DNA from: Watersipora subatra
Taxonomy: Eukaryota
Direction of reading: 5' to 3'
DNA length: 64,000 nt
NCBI RefSeq assembly: GCF_963576615.1
Contig: NC_088717.1
Span: 58,018,749 to 58,082,748, forward strand
In this document: piece after piece, positions 20,644 through 53,580 of the stretch
Numbering within the stretch: position 1 is the stretch's first letter
Layout: every line of letters begins with the position of its first letter
The notes under the pieces: generated by a model
Databases searched by the model: none
Told to the model about the DNA's origin: nothing
Seen by the model: only the letters and a program-made list of their open reading frames with translations
Program-made: the position numbers and the translations under genes

Positions 20644-20908
20644 GTCAGTTTAGATACAGGGGAGTACATTGAAACCTTGACATACTAAGTTCAAGGTTAA
20701 CTTACAGCATTTTAAAATGACATATTTATATACCGAAATACTCGTGATATGTTGTTGTCAACAATGATTTTAATAGAAAAAAAAATCATTTTGGCGACAA
20801 CAACTTCAAGCTGTGACATAAGGAGGCTATAGAAGGAGGGAAACCATAGTCGTATAATGTACAATACGAATGCTAGTGACTCTCTTAATCATCAGCATTC
20901 ATATTGTA

Positions 20909-21343
20909 CATTCTATGAATGAGCGACATTCTATGAATGAGAGACATTCTATGAATGAGAAGCATTCTATGAATGAGAGACATTCTATGAATGAGAGACA
21001 TTCTATGAATGAGAGACATTCTATGAATGAGAGACATTCTATGAATGAGAGACATTCTATGAATGAGAGACATTCTATGAATGAGAGACATTCTATGAAT
21101 GAGAGACATTCTATGAATGAGAGACATTCTATGAATGAGAGACATTCTACGAATGAGAGACATTCTATGAATGAGAGACATTCTATGAATGAGAGACATT
21201 CTATGAATGAGAGACATTCTATGAATGAGAGACATTCTATGAATGAGAGACATTCTATGAATGAGAGACATTCTATGAATGAGAGACATTCTATGAATGA
21301 GAGACATTCTATGAATGAGAGACATTCTATGAATGAGAGACAA
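20909..21343. repeat. 18-bp minisatellite (CATTCTATGAATGAGAGA)n of about 24 units, in UBE2K intron 5.
   Basis: The array is perfectly periodic. It generates the artefactual MNERHS and SLIHRM repeat ORFs 20870..21370 and 20885..21373 in the track. Confidence 0.95.
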
Positions 21344-22859
21344 AAGGGCTTCTGTTGGCCACCATTCTAACACATTCTCTCCATCTAGCTGCCATGCTTC
21401 CTATTTTAGCTACCCATATAGCAGATAGATGTTTGCAAGGTCGAAGTAGGTTTCACAAATTCCAAAAAAAGGTCTGCGTCATGTTTATACATCCTGCATT
21501 TACTTTTGACTGATGGTTATAGAATTACACTAAACAGCTTGTGTGTACATCTTGTGGAATTCCCTCGCAACTAATTCTTTTATACGAACAGAAACTTCAA
21601 AAGATTGTCAGCAAAAATTGGCTATTTTGAAAGTCACCTGTTTAAAACTTATCAATGCATGTTCTACTTTTATAAAATCATTATTTTATTTTCATAAAAA
21701 ACTTTTCATTCATTTTTATAAAAATGAATTTTTATAAAATCTAGTTAAAAAGCTGAGCAGATTAAATATTACGTAGCGTCGCAGCTGTTTTTGGTGGGTT
21801 TCTGTAAAGCTGGCAAATCTTTTTTTTATTACTTGCAACTGTTGATAAATCTGGTATTTGTTCAAAATTACCCAAAAATATGATTCAAACTTTAATCTGT
21901 AATGGTATTTGCTAGCGTTAATGCAATTACAATTTGCACTGTCAATTAACCTTTCTTCATTACTTCGACATGCATGTCGAAGCTGTCATATGTTATTGAG
22001 CAGACCGTCTTAAGACAACACTGTGCTTTGTTTAACACATTTCATGGCTCAAAAACTCGATAAAGGCTTCATGTAGTTACAAATAACATTCGAACAAAGG
22101 CAATATATCAAATTTTAGTTCCAAAACTGATGTTTGGGAAGTTTTGGATGTCATATGTAGGAAATTACCTTGTTTGTCGATACAAATATTATCTTGAATT
22201 TTACATCGTCTATCTCAAATAATTGGTATTTAGATATGGCCAGATGTAGATGTTAGATTGTGTTAGCAATGCTAGACAAAATAAGATGATTGTGAATGTA
22301 TTAAAGGTGCTAAACATAGCTTAAATCTGGCTTATTTGTGATACCTGCGGTTTATCTAAGTACTCCTCAGTAATTTATTATTCTATGGTTCTAAGGCTTT
22401 GGCATCATCTACTTGACGACCTTGGAAATTGCTGAGTTCTTTTGTCAATCCTCTGTTCTTAATCCTCTTTTCTATATAAATAGCCATTTTGAGCTGGTGA
22501 CCTATATAAAGTCAGTTTGGACCCAAGCGTTCATCATCCTGTCAACACTCTTGCTTATCACTGACCAGTTGATCCTCCCAATTAGAATCCATTTTCAATG
22601 TTGGATACTTTACCTAGTTTTAGATTGGAAGAATTATGCAACTCCTTTGATAATTGGGTTATTCCCATTAGTGAGAAGACAACTACTTTCAATCTCACAA
22701 ATTCTTACTCAATGACTTAAACATACATGTAGTTCAAATTATTTTTAGTAAACTTTTGCTGTTTCACCTACTTATTGTATTTGCCTAGAATTTTGAACAA
22801 GCAATATAAACTATTACAATCCGTCATACTGTTATCATGTTTAATGTTAATTTATGCAG

Positions 22860-22931: not shown

Positions 22932-23879
22932 TTGACTAACCTACTCCCTCCGCTGCCAGAGTTCTACTCCTGTTCCTTGTTCACCAGTGTACTGTGGCTC
23001 AGCTACCAGATCCATCAGAAGTTGTCGTTCCAACTGCGGGACTGTATAACTCAAGTCCCTCGCGAGCTCGTTATGTTCTGAATTGTCCACTCGTGTTTAA
23101 CTTGGCTATCCTTGTATTATAACTGTGTTTTATAGTAGGTTTGCTGTTACTAATATTCATTGCTTGATAGTGCTTTCGCCATGCCTTATATAAATTCATT
23201 TATCCTGAGAACTCGGATTTTTTCTGGTCAGGTTTACAATACAGCATAACTGGTTCTATTTCGAAAGGTTTGGCGTTGTTAGAGATTTGCCTTACCTCCT
23301 ATTTGATTTTTTAAATAATTAAAACAAAAAACCGCTGTTGATTAGTATTTCATGATCAATACAATACACAAAATAGAACCTGCGGATTAATATTTAAATG
23401 CTGCCCCATCATTTGTGGTGTTATTACTCGCAGTAAAATTATTTCACTCTGTATACATGTGTACATGACTCCTACATATTGTACATGGTATGTTTATATG
23501 ACTTATAAGAGTCAGGATCTATATAGAAACTTGTTTTTGCTGACAATTCGTGTTGCTTCAAAAAGGTTACAGCAAACAACACGAGTTACACTTTTTATTA
23601 ATAAGCCTTCAATCATTGTTAACTAGCTTTTTAGAGAGACAAGCTTACAGCAAAACACTATAAAGGCTCTGAGTTATAGCGGCAGTTGGTGTCAAAGCTT
23701 ACCTGTGCCGAAACTCTTAGTGTTGTGTGCAACAACGCTTTGACCTTGAAACGCATCTACAGATTAATAAATGACTGCAATGTCGGGCAATGGCTAAAGT
23801 TTCTCTCGTTCATCCACACAGACATCCCCAACAAGTGTATGAAGCCGTCCTTGAATATCTTTTAGTCTTCATAATAAAT

Positions 23880-24556
23880 TGCTTGTACGTGTACAATAGC
23901 ACATGTACACGTACAATAGCACATGTACACGTACAATATACAACAGCACACGTACAATATACAATAGCACATGTACACATACAATATACAATAGCACATG
24001 TACACGTACAATATACAATAGCACATGTACACGTACAATGTACAATAGCACATGTACAATGTACAATAGCACATGTACAATAGCACATGTACACGTACAA
24101 TATACATTAGCACATGTACACGTACAATATACAACAGTACATGTACACATACAATAACACATGTACACGTACAATATACATTAGCACATGTACACATACA
24201 ATAGCACATGTACACGTACAATATACAATAGCACATGTACACGTACAATGTACAATAGCACATGTACAATATACAATAGCACATGTACAATAGCACATGT
24301 ACACGTACAATATACATTAGCACATGTACACGTACAATATACAACAGTACATGTACACATACAATAGCACATGTACACGTACAATATACAATAGCACATG
24401 TACACGTACAATATACAACAGCACATGTACATATACAATAGCACATGTACACGTACAATATACAATAGCACATGTACACGTACAATATACAATAGCACAT
24501 GTACACGCACAATATACAATAGCACATGTACACGTACAATATACAATAGCACAAAG
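23880..24556. repeat. Minisatellite of about 25 units of 27 bp (GCACATGTACACGTACAATATACAATA), with variants.
   Basis: Direct reading. It produces the many overlapping Cys/Tyr-rich artefactual ORFs 23790..24641 on both strands in the track. Confidence 0.95.
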
Positions 24557-24654
24557 CATCATTTTGAGATTTAAACCCAACCGATAGCTTAGCAAAAACA
24601 AGCTGAGCTCTAGCAAATATCAAACCTTCAATCAAATTCACTGATGGAAGGAGG

Positions 24655-30789: not shown

Positions 30790-32012
30790 GTTTGACTTCC
30801 TACTACATATATGATTATTTTATTATTATATATTATTACTACTACATATATGATTATTTTATTATTATATATTATTACTACTACATATTCTAACGTACCT
30901 GGTTTTTGCGTCCTACCTCTCGCGTGCTCGCAGTTAAGATGCCGCTATCCCCCTTTCTCCTCGCGAACCGGACATCCGGTTCTCCGCATCACACATATAT
31001 GATTATTTTATTATTATATATTATTACTACTACATATATGATTATTTTATTATTATATATTATTACTACTACATATATGATTAGTTTATTATTATATATT
31101 ATTACTACTACATATATGATTATTTTATTATTATATATTATTATTATAACATACATGATTATTTTATTATTATATATTATTACTACTGCATATATGATTA
31201 TTTTATTATTATATATTATTACAACTACATATATGATTATTTTGTTATTATATATTATTACTACTGCATATATGATTATTTTATTATTATATATTATTAC
31301 TACTACATATATGATTATTTTATTATTATATATTATTACATTACATATATGATTATTTTATTATTATATATTATTAAAACTACATATATGATTATTTTGT
31401 TATTATATATTATTACTACTGCATATATGATTATTTTATTATTATATATTATTACTATTACATATAAGATTATTTTATTATTATATATTATTGCTACTAC
31501 ATATATGATTATTTTATTATTATATATTATTACTACTACATATTTGATTATTTTATTATTATATATTATTGCTACTACATATATGATTATTTTATTATTA
31601 TATATTATTACTATTACATATATGATTATTTTATTATTATATATTATTACTATTACATATATGACTATTTTATTATTATATATTATTACTATTACATATA
31701 TGATTATTTTATTATTATATATTATTACTATTACATATATGATTATTTTATTATTATATATTATTACTATTACATATATGATTATTTTATTATTATATAT
31801 TATTACTATTACATATATGATTATTTTATTATTATATATTATGACTATTACATATATGACTATTTTATTATTATATATTATTACTATTACATATATGATT
31901 ATTTTATTATTATATATTATTACTACTACATATATGATTATTTTATTATTATATATTATTACTACATATATGATTATTTTGTTATTATATATTATTACTA
32001 CTACATATATGA
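30790..32012. repeat. 39-bp AT-rich satellite (CTACATATATGATTATTTTATTATTATATATTATTACTA) of about 29 units, interrupted at 30889..30993 by a unique GC-rich ~105 bp insert.
   Basis: Direct reading. It generates the artefactual MIILLLYIITTTY repeat ORFs 30811..32029. Confidence 0.95.
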
Positions 32013-34334
32013 TTATTTTTCACATTTAAAAGCTCATAAACAATGAAGTGTGTTTATAAACAGTCTGCTGGGAGAGAGCTTAGAATTGTAAGCTATGTCA
32101 TAAAAAAGTGCAGCACCTTAGATTCGTACCATCTGCTGACAGCATGTAGTATCGCTTATCTCCTAATGGCTGTGATTGTCTCTTTCCTTTAGAGATACCT
32201 TTGTGATCTAAATTTAACAAAGAAACTTTTTCAAAGAACTTGGTCTCCCTTTTAACTCCTTACTATTTATTTGTTGAGTAATTATAGCCTGAGTACGTGT
32301 TATGTAAGAATGTGATCTATAATCGGTTTTTGACTTGGTTTATAGATTTATTGCTACCTTATTGGGTTTATGTAGTACAAAAGGTAGACATCGAATATTT
32401 CTCACTTTTCATTGGACACCGATAAAGTTTTTTTTATTCTGCACAAATTTATGATTATTGAATGTATTAAACTTATTAATAATTAAAGCATGTTATAGCA
32501 TTAAGTCCTTAGTGAACATCTATGCAGGTTCTAGAGAAGTGATAGCCTTAGAGAATTGTTTTGCATATCACCATTTATAAGCAATGCAATGCATAAAGCA
32601 CGAGTATCTAACCAATACAATACGATGCAAATTAAGACAGTGCAAATTTTTACTGGATTTTCAAGTGGTGTTAACCATGCTACAAATCCAATTTACTACA
32701 AAGATAAGACAACTTCAAAAGATGCAGTAACACTATTCAAACGTGTGATGATGTGATGATCAAATGGAAATGATTAATATAATTTCCAGAAATATTTCAT
32801 TTAGGGTGAAGCTGATGTATTTAATGAGAAACTTTTTGTAACTTTGAGGCTGACAAATACATAATTAGAAATAACAAGTTAAATTATACATATTCAATGT
32901 TTATATGCATGAAAAGCGTATTTGTAAAAGCAAATCTTGGAGTTGGCTCCACTATTTTCTATCAATCATTGCATAATAATCCTTATCTAGTGCTAACTTG
33001 GAGTTCAAAAGATTTCTATATTATCCATAGATATATATACCTATATATATCTATATATCTATATAGGTTTATATATCTATGATATTATCATACTCTTGTG
33101 TCTTGGTAGCGTTTTGTCAAGTTAACCAACGTTCTGTATGCTTCCCAAAACACTCTCTTTAGAGTTATCCACTCTTACACAAGTATACATAAAACCATTG
33201 GCGGATCTGTGAATGATTGTAAAATATACACTTAAAAATCTTCCAATGCCACTACGCAAAAGTTAAGAACTTTCATCTAGTTTAATATTCCCTACAAGTA
33301 GTTTTAAGTTCTATAGCAATGCCAATCAGCTATACAAATGATAATGTAAACAATTGATGTGCCAATTATAATAATATGATATATTAATCTAGCAAATAAA
33401 AAACTGCAATAGTTGTTAAGGAAAAAAAGGAAAGAGAGAAAGTAAGGCATCAGGTCATAACTGTGACCCTATTTAAATGTTAAGGAGATGAGTAAGTGTA
33501 TGAATTGGGAAGCAAATCATTACGTTGTGTCTGTCTGCTCAATATTTACATTGTACACACGTCCAAGTCTTTGGGCAAAGCTTTTTGAAAACGATCACGT
33601 AAACTACTGTAGTTATATGTATGCTTTATGTGTAAACATTGCGGTTGCTTATATTTAGATAGATTTTTCCAAAATATAAACAAACATTAGCCAAAAGATA
33701 ACATCAATTATTTTAAAACAGTTGCTGTTAGGTAGCTGTACACATTTCTTCATGTGATTTGAGTCTGATGTCCTTTATCTAGACATAAACCAATAATCCT
33801 CAAAGAGTTGCTGTATTACAGACTTAGCCTGATTAGCTAAAGTTTGTATAAAGCTAATGACAACGGAAGCAATTAGTTATACTGATAAAGTGCCTTATGC
33901 TTTGTACAGGCTTGAGAAGTCTAAACCTTTGAACTCCCAAAAGCTGGCCAGTGATGTCTGGTATAACGGATGAGAGGTGTGAATGAGATAACCCTAAGCT
34001 CCATCAATAGTTGGCTAATCAACCCTTGAGAGGCACTCAAGTTGCCTTGAATAGAATAAAGTAGTAATTGATAAAAAATATTCACATGATTTTAGCAGAA
34101 AAGATAAATATAAACATGTTAGATACAAGCTTGGTATTGTGTTTAGTTAGCAGTAAAAAATGCGCAAGCCTTGTAAAATTTCCTCAATCTCATTCATTTA
34201 CCAAACTGAAAAGCCAGTTTTGAAACATTTCAAAATACGGTAACTCAGTATGTTTTCTATGCAAGAGCACTACAAGACGCCACCATAGTACTTAAGATAT
34301 ACCGTAATACTTATCGTAACGATGATCGACGGCT

Positions 34335-37580: not shown

Positions 37581-38375
37581 CTAAAACTTTTGAGCTACCC
37601 ACTGTACCCTTTTCCATCTAGCATGGCAGTATATTGCTTCATCAAAATCTCCAGGTGGTGGCACAGTGGGTTCCTTTCTTCCTGTTAGAATCATGTTTGG
37701 TGTGACTGGTGTTTCTTCATGATTAGAGATGTTGATTGCTCCTAAGGGCCTGTTGTTGACAATAGCAGCAGCCTCATAGAATGCCGTTCTTAGGGAAGTA
37801 CTGTCGAGTCTAGAACTTTGCCTTAATATGTCATTGAGCACTGCTCTGATGGTACGGATCTGCCTCTCCCAAACGCCTCCCTGATGGCTTGCCATCGGGG
37901 AATTAAATACAAACTCTATGCCTCTATCGCATAGGCATCTTTTTGCTCCCGCATCCAACAAATTCTTGGCGCCGACAAAGTTTGTTCCATTGTCAGAATA
38001 GAGCTTTATCACAGAACCCCGTATGGCGATGAAACAACGTAGTCCATTGAGAAAGGCGTCGGCAGTTAAATCGTTTAAAACTTCAATGTGGAGAGCCCTA
38101 CTATACAAACATGTGAAAACTAATCCGTACTTTTTCATTTCCTTCCTTCCCTCTTTAATCGCGTATGGGCCGAAGCAGTCCATTCCTGTGTGTGTGAACG
38201 GTGGGGCACAGCTAGTTCGGTCTTGAGGTAACTCTCCCATTTGCTGTCTCATAGGCTTTCTTTTCATCTTCTTGCATGGCATGCATTGACCTAATTGTTT
38301 TTTAACTGTTCTTATACCCGATATGAGCCAGAGGCCATTTTGACGCATGGATATTAGCGTGTAGGAAGGTCCCAT
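37581..38375 (-). pseudogene. BEL/Pao integrase core fragment.
   Basis: 264-aa ORF with HIEVLNDLTADAFLNGLRCFIAIRGSVIKLYSDNGTNFVGA (a DDE integrase core with the SDNGxxF motif). It is not in frame with the upstream RNase H. Confidence 0.75.
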
Positions 38376-38534
38376 GTGGTGTGAAATTTCATGGTAGTAG
38401 TTAATAAATAGCTTACTCGAGTGAGAGTTCTTTGGTAATATTATTGGATGTTTTTTTAGCTCGGTAAGAGATAAAGAATTTCTTGCTCTCCCACCAATCT
38501 TTATTAAGCCATGTTGATCCAGGTAGGGGCTTAA

Positions 38535-39374
38535 TCAAAGCAACGAACTTGTTTTCATCACTTGGTTACCCTTTATCAAAACTCCGATTTCCTCTTGAAA
38601 ATATTTTGTCTGTGTAATTTTCAATACTAATCTTTTGGCCGCTTCGATATTTTCAATTGATGGTCGCGTCAGAGGAATCTTTAAAGACTTGTTCTTGGCC
38701 ATCTGGAGTAAGTAAGCAAAGGCTCTTAGCAGTCCCTTGAGCGTGCTATACTTTTTCAACCTGTTGTACATGTCGATGAGTGTTGAAATCTCAGTCACTC
38801 TGACAACTTGGACTTTCTTAATTTCTGGATCATCCTCTGACACTCCTCTTCGTGTCGACATATCCAACTGTAATCTATGTTGTAGTTCTGGCTGCGATCG
38901 TAAAAACTTGGGACCCGTAAACCACATGGTGCGTTTTAATTTTTCGGCCTCCATCCCTCGAGAAGCTATGTCGGCAGGGTTTTCTGCCCCGGGTACGTGA
39001 TGCCATTGCTCAGGGTTAGATGCTTGTCTAATCCCATGAACTCTGTTAGCAACAAACATGTGAAATTTCCTCCATTCATTGCAGATATAGCCAAGCACGA
39101 TGGTTGAATCACACCAAAAAAATGACTTGCTTATATCCATGTGCAGTTCCCTTTGAAGCGTATTGTTGAGTTGGGTGGCTAAAAAGGCACCTTGTAGCTC
39201 TAGTCTCGGAATGGTGGTTACCCCTTTACTGGGTACGACTTTTGCTATAGCCAACACAAGATTGGTGCAAACATTTCCTAGGTTGTCAATGGATCGCAAA
39301 TACGAGCAGGCACCAATGCCTTCCAGCGAGGCATCTGAAAATGTGTGCAGCTCATACACGCATTGCGTCTGCAA
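38535..39374 (-). pseudogene. BEL/Pao RNase H region fragment.
   Basis: 279-aa ORF containing TIPRLELQGAFLATQL, the TIPRLEL motif that is diagnostic of Pao/BEL RNase H. Confidence 0.75.
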
Positions 39375-39766
39375 CCCATCCAGGCACCTAGGTATTTCTA
39401 GTTAGAGTTGTGACAGTTGAGTAGCCCATCTGTTCCACAATTGATTCATTTCCTCATTGAGAGGTTCATCCCAATCAACACTAGTCTTATTGACCTTCTG
39501 CAGTATATTTCTTCCCTGGTGTGTGAATGGTGCTAAAAGACCAATGGGATCAAAAAGCTGACCGACTACAGACAGTATGCCACGTCTTGTGACAGGCCCA
39601 GCTTTAACATCACTTCCACTAAATCTGAAAAAATCTTTATTAAGGTCCCACTCCAATCCTAGGGTACGTTGAGGAGACAGATAATCTGCAAACAAATCGA
39701 TTGCTTTCTCCGACTCGGGAATCGATGATAAAACTGAAGAATCATTGCTAATGAACTTATGAAGTC

Positions 39767-42700
39767 TTAAATTTCCTGTTGCGCAAAGAGCCCTAGCGTC
39801 CTCAATAAGTTGCTGTTCACGCTTGTGATACCGTCATCAACATAGAAATCTCTCCGTATAAATTCTGCAGCTTTTGGGTATTCCCCGGCATGGTCGTCTG
39901 CTAAAGTTCTCAGACCATAGGTGGCAACAGCAGGTGAAGATGTGGCTCTAAACAAGTGCTTTGTCATCCGATACTCTTTGACTTCTCCCTCTGTTGTTTT
40001 CCATAAAAAGCGCAAATAATCTCTGTCAGATGGAGTAACATGAAAATTGAAGAACATTTTTTCTATGTCGCAAGCGATTGCGATTTTTCCTTTTCTAAAC
40101 CTACACAAAATCCCAAGCATACTGTTGGTCAAATCAGGGCCTTGAAGCAGATGCTGATTTACAGATGTTCCCGAATATGTAGCTGCACAATCGGATACCA
40201 CACGGAGTTTGCCTTTCTTTTGGTGCTTTACTGCACAGTGTGGTATATACCACACGCAACCTTTCTGAGGAACAATATTGGTAGCCTCTTCAGCATGGCC
40301 CCCCGAAAACATCTCTTGCATGAATTGTACATACTGTAGTTTAAACTCCGAGTCGCTCTCAAATCTCTTAAATAGTGAAGTGAGGCGTTGTTCGGCTTGG
40401 CGTTTGTTGTCTGGTAAGTGTGGTCGCTGCCTAAATGGTAAAGCCATCTGATAAGACCCTGATGGTAGCACTTCCGTTGTTTGTTCCATGATGTTTAGAA
40501 ATTTTATGTCTTCTTGAGATATGAGGACATGATCGTCGAGCTTGATGCATGTACGGTGTGTAATAAGTCTTCTATCTCCTTGCCGTCTGTTGTCTGCTCC
40601 AAAGACGGTCCACCCCAACATTGATTTCCTGGCATATGGCAAGCCTTTGACTTGAACTAATGCTTCTAAAGGGGCAAAAGCCTCGGGACAATTAGCTCCT
40701 ATTAGCAATCCAATGGGAATGTCCATCAAAGGTGGCAATTTGCTTGCAAACTCTTTAAGATGAGATAGTTTTGCCACATTATTTCTGCAAGGAATGTGGT
40801 CGCGATTGCATGCAATATTTTTCCAACCATAGGCATCTAAGTAAGTGAAGTCTGCTTGTTCGTATCCTTGTATTCTAATATCTTGATATAAAGTGACCCA
40901 TTTTGTTGATTCTCCTGTGAGAGTTTCTACTGTGACCAATTCTCTTGTGTAGTCGGGTTGGAGATATTTCGCCAAGTCTGTATTGATGTAAGAGTGTTCT
41001 GAACCTGAATCATGGAGCGCGTATACAAGTAGCGTTTTTGCAGGAGATTTGTCAGTAGTTATATGCACTGGCAAGATCATGCTGAGGGAGTTACCTGTTG
41101 TACCAGTTTTCTTTGAAGATATCCGTTTAAGTTCTGCACTTGGTTCTTTTCCCGGCTGAATATTTGTGCTGGGCATCGATGTGGTTGAGCTTCTTTCACT
41201 TGGTGGCTTTGGAACCGCAGCTTGTTCTTGGTTTCTCCAATCTTTAGATGTTGTCGAAAAGTCGATGTGTAGGACTGTTGGATGTCTTTTCCCACATCCT
41301 GTCTTGGAACAAAAGGCTCTGTTTGGGCACTGTCTTGATACGTGTTCTCTTTTAGTACAGCCAAAGCAAAGACCATTCTCCTGAAAAAATAAGTTCTTTG
41401 GTTCTCTTGGCAGCTTAGCAAGTGCCCAACATTCGTTCGTTAGATGGGTTTTCTTACAGTAAAGACATTCACTTATTTTAGAGGTTCCTGTTGAATGGCT
41501 TCGTAATTTCATTGGATTGGCTGGAGCATAGCTCCTTTCCTTTTTATTGAAATCTGGCTTATGTTGACAGTTTTGATTTGCTTCCTGTCCGCTGATCTTT
41601 CGTTCTTCTTCCATATCTTCAGCTTGCTCTTTGACGAATTCAACAAATTCATTAAAAGTAGGATAACTGCTATATTCTTTTACACACACTCTCACCTTTT
41701 TGGCCCAGGATCTCAACATCCATTCTGGTAATTTCCTAGCAAGAATCTCATTTTGGTTTCTGTCATTCAATAGGCGCAACTCATCACAACCTCGCATTGC
41801 GGATTTGATGTGACTTAGAAGATTTGCGTATTTTCTCATAGTGTCAGCATCCCTTGTGCCAATCTTTGGAAACTCCTCAAGCTTTTTTCTTAATCCGAGA
41901 GCAGCATCATACTGTTTACCAAATCTTTTTCTCAAATCTTTCCTTGCGTCTTCATAAGCATCCATTGTGTTGGTAAGAAAATATCCACTGACTGCATCAA
42001 ATGCTTTACCAAAAATAAACCTCTTGAGGTGTCTTAGTGGTTGCAGTCCTGTTAAGCCTTCCGATTCAATGTAGGCGTCGAAGTCTATTTCCCATTCCTT
42101 GAACATAGTAGGATCACCCTTGAAAACACTGGGTTCGAGGGTTGAGCGCTTTGTGGACTTCATCGTTGCAATCAATGCTTTGGTGAGGGCTTGTATTTCA
42201 CCTGAACCGGAGTTGTTCATTTTTGTCTCAGCGTTTGAAGCTGCAGACCCTGTCTCGGATTTTGGAAGACGATTGTTCTTGTTGTTTGTGGAAGAGCTCT
42301 GAGAGTCCCTTGCCTTCTTTCTAGCCATCAGCTGCTGAAACTTTGCAGCTGCCTCTTCCAGCTCTCTTTCTATATCACTGTCATATTCTGCGGAGTTGAC
42401 CCTGCTTGCCTCTTCTATTCTCTCTGCTAACGTTCTCTTGCAATCATCAACAGTTGACCCATAATATTCAAACATGTTCTGTAGTGTGGTTAACCTTTCC
42501 TTATCATCAGTCAATTCACACAATTCGACCCACTTCTCCTGTATTTCCTTTAACATCTTCTCGATAGCAGAAGAAAAATCTTGCATTTCTTTTTCAGTGT
42601 GCATATTCATCAGAAAATCTTCTATTTTCTCCAATTCATCATTTATCAACTTTGGAATATCCTTGAGTAATGTAGACTTTTTGATACGATCAGATGTTCT

Positions 42701-42847
42701 AAATATAGGTGGGCTATTCATTCTGTGGCCACTACCTGCTTGTGACGTGTGCTCTGCTGAATTGACATCTTGTTCTGAATTCATTATGATGTTTAAAAGA
42801 GCAATCATGATAATACCCTGAATTCGTTTATAATTACAGAAAATCAA
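39767..42847 (-). pseudogene. BEL/Pao fused gag-protease-reverse transcriptase ORF (1026 aa); the ORF ends shortly after the YVDD motif.
   Basis: It has a coiled-coil-like gag N-terminus, the zinc knuckles CLYCKKTHLTNEC and CFGCTKREHVSRQC, an LHDSGSEHSYI protease and RT blocks ending in FYVDDGITS. The next pol piece, 39402..39695, is in another frame. Confidence 0.8.
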
Positions 42848-46997: not shown

Positions 46998-47180
46998 AAC
47001 TTATGAGTACATGTTGAATATTTTATGGCATACTCTAAATCTATTGGGAATTGTTCAGGACTTATGAGTACATGTTAAATATTTTATGGCATACTCTAAA
47101 CCTATTGGGAATTGTTCAGGACTTATGAGTACATGTTGAATATTTTATGGTATACTCTAAACCTATTGAAAGTTGTTCAG
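46998..47180. repeat. Three tandem copies of a ~60 bp unit (ACTTATGAGTACATGTTGAATATTTTATGGCATACTCTAAACCTATTGGGAATTGTTCAGG).
   Basis: Direct reading. Confidence 0.85.
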
Positions 47181-47890
47181 GACTTCTGGGTAATTTTTGG
47201 CGAGAAGGTTTAACTGGGGGCTTGAGTTCTGTCATATTAATTTGAACAAATATTCTTACTATAAAGCGGAGAAACAAACCAAGTTAAGTACTATTTATTT
47301 AAGCCCTGATACATACAAAATCTTATCAGCCGAGTGTTGTTCTTTCTCATGTTAAACAGCAGCGACACACTTCAGTAAGGAGAGTGATATAATCGCTTCA
47401 GTTATTTTAATAATAAACGTAGGTAGAAATAAGAGCTGCTACAGCCTACAGGATGTCAAGAAATGATGCTGCATGTCTGTGTGTTTATCTGTTCGTGCGT
47501 GGTAAAAAAAGTTTTCTTAACCAAAACAAGGATCGTATTGGAACACTTGTCAGCGTCACACAAATTGTTGGCTGATAACAGCGGACAAGTGTGATGTCAA
47601 TCCTACCTTGACAGGTAGGATTGACATCACAGGCAGGTTGAACAAAGAATAAAGATGAATAGAGTTGAATAGAGATGCAGTGGCTGTGAAGCGTGACCCC
47701 TGTAACCAGTTGAGCGCTGACCTTGGACAATTGAAATGTGAATACATCTGACTCAACCAGCCAGGATGTTTGTTGGTTTAATCGCCTGATTAGACAGTTG
47801 CGTGAACCTACCAGCCTACATCTTGACGCGTTATCATAACTCTTCAATAGATAATTACGTGTGATTGCTGTATATGATGTCAGAAGCGCT

Positions 47891-47906
47891 ACTATATAAA
47901 AGGAAG
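47891..47906 (+). promoter_or_regulatory. TATA box (CTATATAAAAGGAAGG) about 60 bp upstream of the ATG of the novel secreted-protein gene.
   Basis: A canonical TATAAAAG lies at the expected distance upstream of the start codon at 47963. A perfect 16-bp inverted repeat lies at 47592..47629, further upstream. Confidence 0.55.
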
Positions 47907-47962
47907 GTTGCTGGAGTAATATCACTAAGTTTGTTATATCTGTACCTAGACATTGCAACATC

Positions 47963-48059
47963 ATGCACCTAGCGATAGTGTGTCTCATAGGCTTGGCTCT
48001 GTCTGGTAATGTGGCATCTCACTCCTGGATCGCCTGCACAGACTATTTGCAAGAAAATG
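47963..48059 (+). CDS. Exon 1 of a novel secreted-protein gene. It encodes MHLAIVCLIGLALSGNVAS|HSWIACTDYLQEN(G), a signal peptide with a predicted cleavage that leaves His as the first mature residue.
   Basis: A hydrophobic N-terminus is followed by the small-residue motif VAS before His. The donor is AAT G|GTAAGT. Downstream exons are consistent in phase. Confidence 0.7.
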
Positions 48060-48737
48060 GTAAGTATAAAGATTTTTACTTGGTGTCTAGAAATGGTGGT
48101 AACAGAAGCTGACATGTTTTTACATTGTTTTAATATAAATAATCAAGCTGTTTTAATTTTGGTTCTAAATTTTTTTCAATTTTTAAAAACAAAAAAATCA
48201 TTAGTTCCGTTGACTCATGAGTTGGTCCTAGTATGATACCCTTGTGAGAAAGACACCGGGAGGCTTTTTAAGTAGGCTCTACAGATGTTGGGCTGATGTA
48301 GCACAGAAGCAATAGTGGTTATATGCCCTTCCTATCACCACTAATGGTCCTTATGTGACTTATCATCAACCTACTGATAGTATGCCAGCGCCTAATCACT
48401 GAACCTCATTCATTTGTATTAAATACCATTTAATGTCACTTTTGTGTAACATGTAGTTTATGAGTTTGTAAATTCAAGGAAATTTTATTATTAGTTAATA
48501 TATTAGCACGTAGTTTATGAATTTGTAAATTTCAGGATATTTTATTATTAATTAAAAATATTAGCGGGTACTTGATAGCTAAGTCTATATGCCATCACTT
48601 TGTAGTTCTACCTGCAGTAGATGCCATCACCTTGTAGTTCTATCTGCAGTAGATGCCATCACCTTGTAGATCTACCTGCAGTAAATGCCATCACCTTGTA
48701 ATGCTACTTACAACAGCATTTATTATTAAACTTGCAG

Positions 48738-48806
48738 GTGATTACTGGAGCTCAAGCTACTGTCGAGCGTACGCTCGACACGGCCACCAGTATACGAACA
48801 AAGAGA
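48738..48806 (+). CDS. Novel secreted-protein gene exon 2. It encodes (G)DYWSSSYCRAYARHGHQYTNKE(N).
   Basis: The acceptor is acttgcag|GT and the donor is GAG A|GTAAGT. The exon is in phase 1 at both ends and the frame stays open. Confidence 0.6.
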
Positions 48807-49422
48807 GTAAGTACTATTTACAGACTGTTAGCAAGAGTTTAGACTTATGCAAAAATAAATTTTTGTCTCAGTAAATGCAAAGCAGTTATACGGTCAAATA
48901 TAAACGAGATGGTGATATATAGCTATTATATATAAATTTTAATAAGCATGCCAGTTTTAAGAAGCCATATAACATGAAGAATAATCTCGCAAAAGCAATG
49001 CTTCAGGAGTGCTGAAATCGCTCTCCTCATCTCTTGCTGAAGACATCAATGTATAGCCTTACCATACAGATCTCTTCTAAAGATTTTGCACTTCAGTCTG
49101 AGAGGCTTGAAGCCATCAAAGGCTGCTAACCAAAGCCAATACAACATACACTTACAGTTTGACGGGTAAATTTTTAGCAATTGTTAAGATTGAAGAAAAG
49201 TACTCTGGCAGAACTTGTAACATAGGGCAGCTCCAATTTTTTATGATTAAGTTGCTAACGGTATCTGGGTGCAGCTAGCTGCAGTCCCCGTCTTTCGGTC
49301 AGACAGTTGATGATGCAAATTGACCCATGATCTTGACCAACTCTAGCCTACAAATAAACCTCTCCTACGTTGCACTGCTTTTTCACAAATTGGCTACATA
49401 ATTTCATTTTATTATGTTACAG

Positions 49423-49574
49423 ATTTCGGCACGGACACCGGGTACAACTATGTTAATCCACAAGAAAATCAGCCATGTTTTACAACCAGAGATGATGCCA
49501 ATGCATACAACTCAGCGTACCCCATGGCTGTCTATTATCCTGGACAAAAGGTTGTCGTTGCCCACCCTACCAAG
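49423..49574 (+). CDS. Novel secreted-protein gene exon 3. It encodes FGTDTGYNYVNPQENQPCFTTRDDANAYNSAYPMAVYYPGQKVVVAHPTK.
   Basis: The acceptor is tatgttacag| and the donor is AAG|GTAAAG. It is covered by no stop codons. A duplicated pseudo-donor follows at 49599..49626. Confidence 0.65.
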
Positions 49575-49789
49575 GTAAAGCCTTAGAGTGAATTCATCGC
49601 TCACCTTACCAAGGTATAGCCTTAGAGTTGGAAAAATATTATCACATTATATGTAAGTCTGTATCTTCTTGTGCGTGCAAATTAGAAAAAAATGATGTAC
49701 TTGCAGCATAGGGCAACTATGTTGCAAGTACATCATGTATCAAGTAACACGAGTCTTCACATGTAGTACTAAGGCTAAATTTATAACTC

Positions 49790-49925
49790 TAAAGCTATAG
49801 CTTTACAGCTATAGCTTGATAGCTATCAAGCTATAGCTTGATAGTTATAGCTTGATGGCTATAGCTTGATAGCTAAAGCTGATAGCTATAGCTATTGATA
49901 GCTATAGCTTGATAGCTATAGCTTG
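49790..49925. repeat. Simple repeat (AGCTATAGCTTGATAGCTAT-type), in an intron of the novel gene.
   Basis: Direct reading. Confidence 0.85.
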
Positions 49926-50246
49926 ATAGCTATAGCTGATCAAGCAAGCAATAACCATCCATAGCTTAAACAAATTCGTAATTATGTTTCAAGTTTTTAG
50001 CCAAGGTCTCATATGTGGAGACAACTTTTCTGTCTCTTCTTATTGACTGCGTGAGATAGAAAGATGTGACAGAACAATGACTCTGTATCACCTGTAGCTG
50101 CTCATATTTGTACCCGGTGATTATGGGCCTGTAAGAGTTGTGTCCCCTACTGAACTGAGTTCAGTAGGGGACACATCTTACAAACCTGTACCCAGAATTC
50201 TGTAAGCGCTGGTAAACAGGTCAGTACAACATGGTCTTTGTTGTAG

Positions 50247-50363
50247 AACCACGTTGCAGAGACTTGCACCAACCAATACATTCCTGATAATGGAAACTTT
50301 GTGTATAGGAGTGATGTGAATCCTGTGTCTGACCCAACCCTGAGTGCCTTCAAAAACAATGAA
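50247..50363 (+). CDS. Novel secreted-protein gene exon 4. It encodes NHVAETCTNQYIPDNGNFVYRSDVNPVSDPTLSAFKNNE.
   Basis: The acceptor is ctttgttgtag| and the donor is GAA|GTAAGT. It is 117 nt long, in phase 0. Confidence 0.6.
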
Positions 50364-50473
50364 GTAAGTGTAAACAATGACAGCTTGATAAACCATGTTG
50401 ACAATGCGTGATGGTTATGACATGTCGTACCATTCATCTATACTGTATGTGTAAATATGGCATTGCATGGCAG

Positions 50474-50633
50474 GTGGTTGATCTTGGAATTTCACCCTTC
50501 GGTCATGACAAAACTGTGGCTGATATAACAACCTACCCCAAACCTGGGTACCAGAATGCTCCAAAGTTCTGTGAGAACACGGACAAGGCCTTGGCCACGA
50601 GCGCCTTCTACATTCCTACTGACCTTCAATCTG
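50474..50633 (+). CDS. Novel secreted-protein gene exon 5. It encodes VVDLGISPFGHDKTVADITTYPKPGYQNAPKFCENTDKALATSAFYIPTDLQS(G).
   Basis: It is part of the ORF-track ORF 50408..50644. The acceptor is atggcag| and the donor is TCT G|GTAAGA. Confidence 0.7.
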
Positions 50634-51831
50634 GTAAGATATAGAGTAGAGAGGCTTGTCACAGGTTGACTGCAAGTTTTGTGCTGTCATAGCAAAATAA
50701 TTTTATCTTGAAAATCTGCCTTTAAAAGTATGATACAGTATATTATGAGTAGCTATGTAAAAACTATTTCAATGTATATGCTATTGGAATACTGAACTCA
50801 AAATTGTAACAACAGCAAATTCTATTAGACAGTACAAAAAAATAATAAAAATTTGAAGAAAATTATAAAAAACTTTAGTTTAAAACATATTTGCTCTACA
50901 TTTATAGTATGTTTCCATCAACATCTGTAGCAATTTTTATAGAAGTTGTCATACTTTTGCTTTCAGCCCAAAGCATCACAGCATTCATGATGCTTGACCT
51001 GTTTTATTTGCGTTTTAAGCAGCAGTTATCGTTTTATATTCCATATATAAAATTGAATAATAATAGAATGTCTTTAAGAGTTGTATTGTCAGCTGGTATC
51101 ACTGAAGATTAAATGCAATATATATATGTAGATAGGTATGTACTTTACTGTCACAGGTCAAGGCCGTTCAAAGTAAATTATACCATGAAAAAATAAAATA
51201 CATAATAGTAAAGTAAGTTTTTTTGTATTTGAAGAAAAATCTCTTTTTGCATAATACTGCTCTACAGTGTGGAATGGCAAGGAGTTGATTCCTGGTATGA
51301 GGTATAGTGAATTTTCTGAGGAAGTAGGAATGTAATAGATGGTCAGGCAGATTGCAGATGGGGTTTGAATATTTTTGACAGCAAATATCTGAAAACGCAG
51401 TCAGCTTATCAGCATTGTTAAGGATGTTTAGATGCTGATCATAACTGTCCATATCAAGGTAGCATAACTTTAAAAATAATTTTTGAAAGCGTTCTAATTT
51501 TTTTTTTATCAGTCTTCGATACAAAGAGATACCAACTTAAGGCAGCAGTAGCGCTGGTTCTGTACCATGACAGCCTAACTGCCTGGTTAGCACAATTGTT
51601 GTGAGCACCTGTAGCTACCTGCCAGAGTTATACATGGCAAGCCTAAGTAACTCGGAAGTAGCTATGCAGTATATGGTTTTGTTTCAAGTTTCTATTTCTA
51701 ACACACTAATTGAAAAGAAGTCAATGAATCAATGCTAACCTTGACTCATAGTGTCATGAATTTAAAAGTGAATGTAGAAGTACCGATAAGAAACTGATGT
51801 ATAGATATTTTATGTTTTTGGCATGTTACAG

Positions 51832-51978
51832 GAAGATACACCTTTCTCTGGTCTTGGAGTTTTAACAGTGTCAACCCATCAGACACGTACACAAGCTGTT
51901 GGGAGGCAGATGTTGTATCTACCAAATCTGAACGAGACAATATACTTTCCTCCAATGGGCTCTCAACCAACGACCCTG
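51832..51978 (+). CDS. Novel secreted-protein gene exon 6. It encodes (G)RYTFLWSWSFNSVNPSDTYTSCWEADVVSTKSERDNILSSNGLSTNDP(E).
   Basis: The acceptor is catgttacag| and the donor is CCT G|GTGAGA. It contains a conserved-looking aromatic block, YTFLWSWSF. Confidence 0.65.
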
Positions 51979-52852
51979 GTGAGAATTGGTGCATAACTTG
52001 GCATTCTTGCATAGCTTTAGAGATAATATAAAAGCTCTGCAACAAGACTCTATTCTCACTCTTCAGTGATCTTTCATTCAATACATTTGCATTGGCTACA
52101 TAATAATAAAATCATGAAATGGCATCATCTCGCATCATCGACCCCTTTCAGTAGGGAATATTTGCAAGTGGTTGCATAGTGGAGGAAACATACAGACAGT
52201 GAACTACGTATCCGGTCTTCAGCAAAACGATGTTAATATTTAGTGAGTTTTACAAATAGATAAAGGGACTTGTTGAAAACTTGCAGATTAAATGAATACT
52301 TAACAGTGTTTACGAGTTATCCCCACCTGAATATGCATATATAGTTTGACTAGATGATGGGTTTGATACAGAGGCTTGCATTAAAAATTATTAACATAGA
52401 GCAAGTTATGAAATTAAGAGTTTTTGCAACTGGTCATTTTAAACAACTATTGCATTTTTAGGCTGATTAAAATTAAAAATTACAATTAAAGAAATAGCTA
52501 GTTAGGTTTGACAGCTCCCTGTTGAATCAGCTTGGGTCCTTAAATAGTGTATCATTTCACTAAAATGGTCAGCCTGGCTGCATACTGGGATAACCAGGGT
52601 GCTGAACAGTAATGGCTACATACTGGGGATAACCAGGGTGCTGAACAGTAATGGCTACATACTGAGGATAATCAGGGTGCTGAACCGTAACGTCTTCTCA
52701 TCGATTAAAGAAGTAAAAATAAACACAACATATGTTAGACTGAGGACCAGTAAATATAGAGGTACTTAGCGGTGATGAATGTAGATATCTCATTGAGCCC
52801 TTATAGATACCCTGCCAAGATAGTAACATACGGTTTCACCGCTCCTTTTTAG

Positions 52853-53082
52853 AACTTTTGCATGGTGTCTCCCTCGCTCCATTGCCTCCTGGTGTCACTA
52901 CCACGCAATCACCTGTTACTACCAGCCAAGAAAGCAGCAGCCAAGCGAGTACCAGCCAAGCGAGTACCAGCCAAGGAACCAGCCAGGCAACTGTGTCTTC
53001 CAGTCAAGGAACTACTTCTACACCAACATCAGTGCCAGACACATTGCTCTGTCTGGATGCCTGCCTCCATGCATGCTACTAG
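52853..53082 (+). CDS. Novel secreted-protein gene last exon. It encodes (E)LLHGVSLAPLPPGVTTTQSPVTTSQESSSQASTSQASTSQGTSQATVSSSQGTTSTPTSVPDTLLCLDACLHACY*.
   Basis: It overlaps the ORF-track ORF 52858..53082. The acceptor is ctttttag|. A Ser/Thr/Gln-rich, mucin-like linker is followed by the short Cys-rich tail CLDACLHACY and a TAG stop at 53080..53082. Confidence 0.7.
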
Positions 53083-53261
53083 CTTCAACATAACTCTGAG
53101 GTTGCTTCTCAGCACAGTTTAGCTTAATCTAGCGATCTTCTTTATAGCAGAGTGATATTGGCCTTGGATTATTTAATAATATAAAATAATGAAAAAAACT
53201 CGTTATTTATTACTTTGTGAGGTTTTCATTTGGAAGTTTATGTATTAGTTTGCTTAAGAGT

Positions 53262-53580
53262 AGACAATGCTGAAGAGATCAAGTTTACTTACAAGTAGAC
53301 AATGCTGAAGAGATCAAGTTTACATACAAGTAGACCATGCTGAAAATAAAAAGTTTACTTATGAGTAGACAATGCTGAAGAGATCAAGTTTACGTACAAG
53401 TAGACCATGCTGAAGAGATCAAATTTACATACAAGTAGACAGTGCTGAAGAGATCAAGTTTGCATACAAGTAGACCATGCTGAAGATAAAAAATTTACTT
53501 ATGAGTAGACAATGCTGAAGAGATCAAGTTTACTTATGAGTAGATAATGTTGAAGGGATCAAGTTTGCTTATGAGGAGAA
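53262..53580. repeat. 35-bp minisatellite (GTTTACTTACAAGTAGACAATGCTGAAGAGATCAA) of about 9 units.
   Basis: Direct reading. It lies immediately 3' of the novel gene. Confidence 0.9.

Follow-up and report, generated by a model that had tools for sequence, protein, structure and literature searches.

A predicted secreted LPMO-like protein of an uncharacterised family in the bryozoan Watersipora subatra

A seven-exon gene of the bryozoan Watersipora subatra encodes a secreted protein that is probably a copper-dependent lytic polysaccharide monooxygenase (LPMO) or a protein of that kind. The gene occupies positions 47963-53082 on the forward strand of a 64,000-nucleotide stretch of contig NC_088717.1 (positions 58,018,749 to 58,082,748), the whole of which is called the window below. 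It is a real gene, already present in RefSeq and carrying no assigned function. We favour a reading in which its product belongs to an undescribed family and acts on cellulose and/or chitin, and we assign this reading a probability of about 0.6. Conservation supports the presence of the three conserved copper-site residues of LPMOs, at His20, His108 and Tyr218. The protein fits none of the described LPMO families, pointing to an uncharacterised family common to lancelets, sea squirts, lamp shells, a worm, amoebae and water moulds. The gene model, the pattern of conservation, the fold, a distant similarity to AA11 and the fusions of relatives to cellulase and carbohydrate-binding domains are results of the present analysis, from which we infer copper binding, chemistry, substrate and the role of the C-terminal tail.

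Family members and candidate copper ligands

Relatives of the Watersipora protein are found in animals and in protists. A search of 5.8 billion proteins returned 93 relatives and a profile search 173, while an exhaustive HMMER scan of 1.84 billion cluster representatives found 831 clusters at E <= 1e-3, 229 of them at E <= 1e-30. The family thus comprises about 830 sequence clusters as counted at 50% identity. Besides Watersipora, the animal members come from the annelid Owenia, the brachiopod Lingula, several Branchiostoma species and the tunicates Styela, Ciona, Phallusia and Clavelina. Protist members are found in the heteroloboseans Naegleria and Willaertia, in the saprolegnian oomycetes Saprolegnia, Achlya, Thraustotheca and Aphanomyces and in the alga Phaeothamnion. 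Identity of the Watersipora protein within the catalytic domain is 47-59% to the remaining animal proteins and 41-46% to those of protists, a pattern that fits descent within animals with many losses. All named members carry an 'uncharacterised' annotation, and two of them, P0052 (Naegleria fowleri) and P0059 (Saprolegnia diclina), bear the UniRef name 'Chitin-binding type-4 domain-containing protein'. Another automatic signature may already mark part of the family as LPMO-like.

The predicted mature N-terminus is a near-invariant histidine. His20 (codon 48020-48022) comes directly after MHLAIVCLIGLALSGNVAS, and in the aligned relatives it always stands immediately behind a signal-peptide-like segment. 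Conservation was counted on 254 aligned family sequences, with denominators that vary by column. By this count His20 is present in 217 of 218 sequences and is followed by Ser21 (216/218) and Trp22 (218/218). The residue at position -1 relative to the histidine is Ala, Ser or Gly in 66 of 72 relatives and the residue at -3 is Val, Ala, Thr, Ile, Cys, Gly or Ser in all 72. For the 66 relatives that start with Met, the histidine lies 11-27 residues from it, after a hydrophobic core. As the sequences of the signal peptides are unrelated to one another, conservation lies in the place of cleavage, and the predicted cleavage leaving histidine at the N-terminus is accordingly a feature of the whole family. 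A preliminary description of this DNA had proposed a mature N-terminal histidine, in agreement with the pattern found here.

His108 and Tyr218 are the candidate partners of His20 in a copper site. His108 is part of a P-x-K-N-H motif, is present in 248 of 250 sequences and is the sole conserved histidine besides His20. Position 218, within a D-x-Y-T-x-C-W-E motif, is occupied by Tyr in 229 of 239 sequences and by Phe in another 9. The preliminary description had anticipated a second brace histidine and an axial aromatic residue, roles for which conservation and an alignment to AA11 LPMOs (see below) suggest His108 and Tyr218, respectively. Of the histidine-containing blocks that it listed, only VVAHPTKNH contributes a conserved histidine, His108, and position 103 in the same block is Trp, His or Tyr across the family. 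His47 and His49 (ARHGHQY) and His156 (ISPFGHDK) were rejected as ligands because they are not conserved, leaving His20, His108 and Tyr218 as the only candidates. Six cysteines are also conserved, with Cys25 (219/219), Cys41 and Cys221 being invariant and Cys74, Cys113 and Cys178 present in about 93-96% of sequences. An alternative is an extracellular protein that binds no metal and has merely retained the beta-sandwich of LPMOs, serving for instance in carbohydrate binding or in the matrix. The TSP1 repeats of the Owenia and Lingula members, which are matrix modules, would be in line with it. From animals to Heterolobosea and stramenopiles, however, His20 (precisely at the mature N-terminus), His108 and Tyr/Phe218 are conserved almost absolutely. 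Such constancy would be difficult to account for if there were no metal site, and we regard a metal-free protein as very improbable.

The predicted structure has the fold of LPMOs. AlphaFold2, run on a 72-sequence alignment, gave a model with a mean predicted local distance difference test score (pLDDT) of 86. Averaged over blocks of ten residues, pLDDT is 96-98 over most of residues 21-250 and 91 at residues 51-70. The model adopts an immunoglobulin/fibronectin type III-like beta-sandwich and, in structure comparisons, scored 11.3 against AA11 (4MAI), 11.0 against three AA10 chains and 10.8 against AA15 (5MSZ), followed by AA13 (9.8), AA9 (9.1), X325 (8.6), AA16 (8.1) and AA14 (7.4). Unrelated folds scored 6.3 or lower, and Foldseek gave the same picture. 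The scores against LPMO families are nearly equal, so the distance of the predicted structure from any single family is no smaller than the distances among the families. No match of the protein to a known non-copper family was found. Together with the conservation described above and a profile match to AA11, these results support the LPMO-like reading that the preliminary description had put forward.

Relationship to AA11, DUF7492 and other LPMO families

The protein matches a Pfam domain of unknown function. Its only Pfam match is DUF7492 (PF24320), with 39.1 bits against a gathering score of 27 and a best stretch at profile positions 184-244 of 265. The preliminary description had called the gene unannotatable and its product without a match to any family that could be named. 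Neither statement holds, as the gene is in RefSeq, DUF7492 passes its cut-off and the family profile matches AA11 LPMOs at E = 6.5e-7. DUF7492 is also matched by 59 of 72 relatives at E <= 0.01. These matches are partial, covering profile positions 2-120 or 184-250 of 265, and are collinear, and in the Naegleria and Saprolegnia members the start of the profile coincides with the mature histidine. Several of the relatives' matches that we examined fall below the 27-bit gathering score, which places the group at the edge of the Pfam family. In the incomplete library of literature searched, we found no mention of DUF7492 or PF24320. The idea that DUF7492 is AA11 was rejected: AA11 fragments reach no more than 12.9 bits against DUF7492 and score better against Pfam AA9.

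AA11 LPMOs are the only proteins in the PDB matched by the family profile. The single protein, compared with all sequences in the PDB, gave a weak match to AoAA11 (E = 1e-3), and the family profile matched only AA11 chains, at E = 6.5e-7, 2.1e-6 and 8.5e-5. In the stretch that aligns significantly, Tyr218 coincides with the axial Tyr133 of AfAA11A (7P3U). It also aligns with Tyr140 of AoAA11, a residue number counted on the alignment, which we take to be the axial Tyr of that enzyme. AA11 proteins (AoAA11, 4MAH/4MAI; AfAA11A, 7P3U; AfAA11B, 9EXJ) are fungal and chitin-active, and the likeness to them extends to secretion, to histidine at mature position 1, to a C-terminal G-x-Y-T-x-x-W-x-W ... 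Y-x-x-C block that aligns significantly and places Tyr218 on the axial Tyr, and to conserved cysteines in three disulfide-sized sets. The copper site of AfAA11A consists of the brace residues His1 and His71 and the axial Tyr133, with Ala69 at the other axial position (PMC8668981).

These likenesses could be taken to mean that the protein is an ordinary divergent member of the fungal, chitin-active AA11 family and does not represent a separate one. Several differences make this a poor explanation that we give only slight credence. The AA11 match is limited to the last 60-70 or so (profile positions 185-257) of about 230 domain residues, meaning that sequence alignment is confined to the last third and similarity over the whole domain is not found. 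The Watersipora protein starts with H-S-W and its second histidine sits in K-N-H where AfAA11A reads A-T-H, placing Lys instead of Ala two residues before it. The spacing between the two histidines is 88 residues here compared to 70 in AfAA11A (His1 to His71). Furthermore, in contrast to the fungal AA11 proteins, the present family has its members in animals, Heterolobosea and stramenopiles, with no named fungal match among the 120 best of the profile search.

Other described families are more distant in sequence. Similar to AA10 and AA15 proteins (PF03067; for example CBP21 and Thermobia TdAA15A, 5MSZ), the present family has an aromatic residue at mature position 3 and an axial Tyr or Phe. 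The second mature residue is Ser and not Gly, however, so that the H-S-W start differs from the HGY start of AA10/AA15, a point on which the preliminary description was correct. PF03067 (LPMO_10, the Pfam model for AA10, AA15 and AA16) was not matched by the window protein at E <= 10, by 72 relatives at E <= 0.01 or by four relatives at E <= 10; P0052 and P0059, the two relatives named for a type-4 chitin-binding domain, lack a PF03067 match at E <= 10. There was no match to Pfam AA9 (PF03443), and no AA10 or AA15 chain in the PDB was matched by the family profile. AA15 is a family of animal, oomycete and algal LPMOs with roles in chitin remodelling and digestion, for which cnidarians, molluscs and arthropods are the named phyla (PMC5823890). 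The animal groups of the present family, namely a bryozoan, an annelid, a brachiopod, cephalochordates and tunicates, are not those in the phylogeny of that paper. AA18, mentioned in two 2026 papers, is the newest CAZy family number that we found, and one of the two credits the families up to AA18 to Santos et al. 2025 (CelOCE). CelOCE is a bacterial jelly-roll enzyme of 115 residues without an N-terminal histidine (PMC11946906) and, compared to the domain of about 230 residues with N-terminal histidine described here, is unrelated.

We found no published description of the family in the incomplete literature that was searched. A 2021 survey of oomycetes lists only AA15, AA16 and AA17, so oomycete members of the present family were not counted there as LPMOs. 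The only near match in the literature is a Didemnum genome paper, in which a tunicate-wide eggNOG group is named 'LPMO', without sequence detail.

Domain fusions, C-terminal tail and proposed function

Some relatives carry additional domains linked to polysaccharide degradation. Five relatives from metagenomes or transcriptomes (P0110, P0116, P0119, P0128 and P0189) possess a C-terminal glycoside hydrolase family 5 (GH5) domain (E = 1e-36 to 5e-50). One of these GH5 domains, that of P0110, was searched against the PDB, where its nearest matches are endo-beta-1,4-glucanases, namely Pyrococcus EGPh (E = 1e-77) and Acidothermus E1. Of the carbohydrate-binding modules (CBMs), CBM1 is present in two relatives and CBM2 in two Branchiostoma proteins. 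Fusions to a cellulase and to cellulose- or chitin-binding modules are what would be expected of a polysaccharide-active LPMO.

Further observations concern the architecture of the relatives. The N-terminal domains of the GH5 fusion proteins resemble the oomycete branch. Many animal members end in a C-terminal domain that, judged by eye, resembles the CBM2-like one. Precomputed annotation places PF27624 at the C-terminus of five heterolobosean members (P0047, P0048, P0052, P0053 and P0057; Naegleria, Willaertia and unnamed), two of which have a hydrophobic C-terminal end, a possible membrane or glycosylphosphatidylinositol (GPI) anchor. A GH45-like nature was considered for the second domain of P0125; this assignment was dropped, as neither the Pfam nor the PDB sequence search supported it.

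Several points weigh against a polysaccharide-cleaving enzyme. His108 aligns with the brace His71 of AfAA11A in a non-significant segment of only 2.1 bits. Lys106, two residues before His108, is present in 237 of 250 sequences at the place where AfAA11A has Ala69, an axial copper position. At the position two before the axial Tyr, where AA11 has Glu, no more than 152 of 204 sequences have an acidic residue (Asp or Glu), which does not establish a second-sphere residue. A carbohydrate-binding module is absent from the Watersipora protein. Finally, X325/Bim1 proteins and at least some AA16 proteins share the fold and the brace and do not cleave polysaccharides (PMC7924993; PDB 7ze9, 'AA16 LPMO-like protein').

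Together, the missing CBM, Lys106 and the partly conserved acidic residue before Tyr218 leave room for an LPMO-like copper binder that does not cleave polysaccharide, acting either in X325/Bim1-like copper scavenging or delivery or as an H2O2-only oxidase as reported for some AA16 proteins. The X325 proteins provide a precedent, possessing a histidine brace with no activity detected (PMC7924993). According to a review, X325 has an additional Asp ligand to copper, and the present family has a near-invariant Asp at position 120 (236/250). Metal binding is conceivable for the Cys/His-rich end CLDACLHACY. Against this explanation stand the fusions of relatives to a GH5 endoglucanase, CBM1 and CBM2, which are typical of polysaccharide-acting enzymes. 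We know of no X325 protein fused to a CBM or a glycoside hydrolase. X325 proteins are GPI-anchored, the anchor being a defining feature, whereas inspection of the Watersipora sequence revealed no hydrophobic GPI-type signal at the C-terminus, the protein ending in ...PDTLLCLDACLHACY without a long hydrophobic stretch. On balance we consider a non-cleaving copper binder unlikely, yet the main alternative to our preferred reading.

The C-terminal region is a predicted disordered tail with a cysteine-containing end. As stated in the preliminary description, the tail is rich in Ser, Thr and Gln and ends in CLDACLHACY. Its residues 256-310 (55 residues) are 51% Ser/Thr and contain no N-glycosylation sequons. 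In the ten-residue blocks covering residues 271-310, pLDDT drops to about 40-50. A helix of low confidence is predicted for the last ten residues, where Cys314, Cys318 and Cys322 are spaced i, i+4 and i+8, together with a His. Disordered C-terminal regions occur across LPMO families (PMC8615602). The arrangement of a catalytic domain followed by a Ser/Thr-rich disordered tail with cysteine near its end is shared with CoAA9A and other LPMOs possessing a disordered C-terminus. CoAA9A has a single tail cysteine that leads to a disulfide-linked dimer with better binding to cellulose (PMC10990093), in contrast to the three cysteines and the His in the last ten residues here. As the number of terminal cysteines is odd, an intermolecular disulfide is plausible for the present protein.

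Our preferred reading, a polysaccharide-active LPMO, implies the following mechanism. Residues 1-19 would be removed by signal peptidase, after which the free amino group and the side chain of His20 and the side chain of His108 would hold one copper ion in a histidine brace with Tyr218 beneath it. Once reduced to Cu(I), the site would draw on H2O2 or O2 and oxidise a crystalline beta-1,4-linked polysaccharide (cellulose and/or chitin) at C1 or C4, causing the chain to break. The disordered, probably O-glycosylated Ser/Thr tail would act as a spacer and the terminal cysteines, three and hence odd in number, may form a covalent link between the enzyme and a partner or between two copies of the enzyme. 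In the animal, which is a suspension feeder, the enzyme would likely serve either to digest the cell walls of algae or to remodel the chitinous cuticle of the animal itself.

The biology of the carriers is compatible with such a function. Among them, tunicates, oomycetes and Naegleria cysts, as well as bryozoans, brachiopods and annelids with their cuticles or chaetae, make cellulose or chitin. As circumstantial evidence, carriers either make these polymers or are marine suspension or deposit feeders eating walled microalgae, which does not separate digestion from self-remodelling. A more specific proposal, which we advance tentatively and at slightly less than even odds, is that this is an undescribed family of true LPMOs, distinct from AA9-AA17. 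Its native animal carriers would be chordates, with lancelets and tunicates, and lophotrochozoans, with bryozoans, brachiopods and annelids, and they would have it in common with Heterolobosea and with stramenopiles, here saprolegnian oomycetes and an ochrophyte alga. Suspension feeders would use it against algal cellulose, or organisms making cellulose or chitin would use it to remodel their own walls, tunics or cuticles.

Gene model, genomic surroundings and significance

The seven exons form one uninterrupted coding sequence on the forward strand. Joined, they yield 972 nucleotides with one terminal stop, encoding 323 amino acids, and the preliminary description was accurate in giving seven phase-consistent exons and a product of about this length. 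All introns are bounded by GT and AG, exon entry phases are 0, 1, 1, 0, 0, 1 and 1, and pyrimidine-rich tracts precede most splice acceptors. A pattern search located a TATA-like box, TATATAA, at 47893-47899 (+); it had been described as lying about 60 bp upstream and is in fact 70 nt 5' of the ATG. Exon 1 (47963-48059) contains the signal peptide (47963-48019, residues 1-19), His20, Trp22 and Cys25. Exon 2 (48738-48806, residues 33-56) carries the invariant Cys41 and Arg46, and exon 3 (49423-49574, residues 56-106) carries Cys74, Tyr93, Gly96 and Lys106, the latter being part of the P-x-K-N-H motif. The proposed second brace histidine, His108 (50250-50252), is located in exon 4 (50247-50363, residues 107-145) together with Cys113 and Asp120. 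Exon 5 (50474-50633, residues 146-199) encodes a conserved G-[FY]-Q-N-x-P-x-F-C block including Gln172 and Cys178. Exon 6 (51832-51978, residues 199-248), the region with significant matches to AA11 LPMOs and Pfam DUF7492, encodes a G-x-Y-T-F-x-W-x-W-x-F-N strand, the proposed axial Tyr218 (51888-51890), Cys221 and Glu223. Exon 7 (52853-53082, residues 248-323 and the stop codon) contains the Ser/Thr/Gln-rich linker (52876-53040, residues 256-310) and the CLDACLHACY motif (53050-53079).

The gene model agrees with public annotation. RefSeq protein XP_067949970.1, 'uncharacterized protein [Watersipora subatra]', annotated on a 61-Mb chromosome-scale record, is 100% identical to the product over its full length, so the same model was reached independently. 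A tblastn search of the protein against the whole window gave seven blocks that are exactly the seven exons and revealed no second copy or paralogue within the 64 kb. A chance chain of open reading frames (ORFs) or a pseudogene would have to account for a frame intact over seven exons with consensus splice sites, for identity with the RefSeq model, for orthologues in five animal phyla at 47-59% identity and for a confident AlphaFold2 model, and we regard its probability as negligible. A paralogue, XP_067949971.1 (315 residues, 63% identical), lies elsewhere on the same 61-Mb chromosome, outside the window. Its architecture is similar, with a signal peptide, an H-S-W start, a Pro/Thr-rich tail and a Cys-rich end reading ...TCLDNCLKSCY, and the consecutive accession numbers suggest that it is a neighbouring tandem duplicate of the window gene.

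The surroundings of the gene are rich in repeats. In a mechanical ORF list, an antisense ORF of 167 amino acids (47485-47988, -) extends across the promoter and the first codons of the gene. Tandem repeats fill the flanks and introns. A 61-nt unit is repeated 3.2 times upstream of the gene (47000-47192), intron 1 contains a 57-nt unit repeated twice and a 32-nt unit repeated 3.7 times (48453-48707), intron 3 contains a 14-nt AGCTATAGCTTGAT array of 10.7 copies (49789-49967) and intron 6 contains three copies of a 39-nt unit (52575-52690). Past the stop codon, with its first base 165 nt downstream, lies a 35-nt unit repeated 9.3 times (53247-53571). About 5 kb 5' of the gene, a remnant of a BEL/Pao-type long terminal repeat retrotransposon occupies 37581-42847 (-). 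One of its three ORFs encodes 1026 amino acids with a DUF1759 gag-like domain and CCHC, protease and reverse transcriptase motifs apparent by eye, the second matches the Pao retrotransposon peptidase (Peptidase_A17, E = 3e-22) and the third matches an integrase core (rve) under the gathering score. That the element is divided over three ORFs points to degradation. Three long minisatellites are also present, namely a 15-nt unit read as HSMNER repeats in an ORF (20870-21373), a repeat that looks Cys/Tyr/Val-coding (23862-24641) and a very AT-rich array (30906-32029; GC 0.175 in 30-32 kb). They appear in the ORF list only because their repeats lack stop codons.

If the LPMO reading is true, the gene bears on several questions of animal and protist biology. 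Each LPMO family added so far (AA11, AA13, AA14, AA15, AA16 and AA17) has broadened the known chemistry, substrates or biology of these enzymes. To our knowledge, AA15 is the only LPMO family known in animals, and a second one, present in invertebrate chordates (lancelets and tunicates) and lophophorates, would change that picture. Gene fusion would tie this family to endo-beta-1,4-glucanases and cellulose-binding modules in its relatives, and part of a Pfam domain of unknown function, DUF7492, would gain a function. Such a family would have implications for the digestion of algal walls by marine suspension feeders without microbial help, for the way tunicates handle their own cellulose and for the age of histidine-brace enzymes in eukaryotes. 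Should the protein instead be a non-catalytic copper binder, it would, as far as we know, be the first protein in animals to correspond to the Bim1/X325 copper-uptake proteins of fungi.

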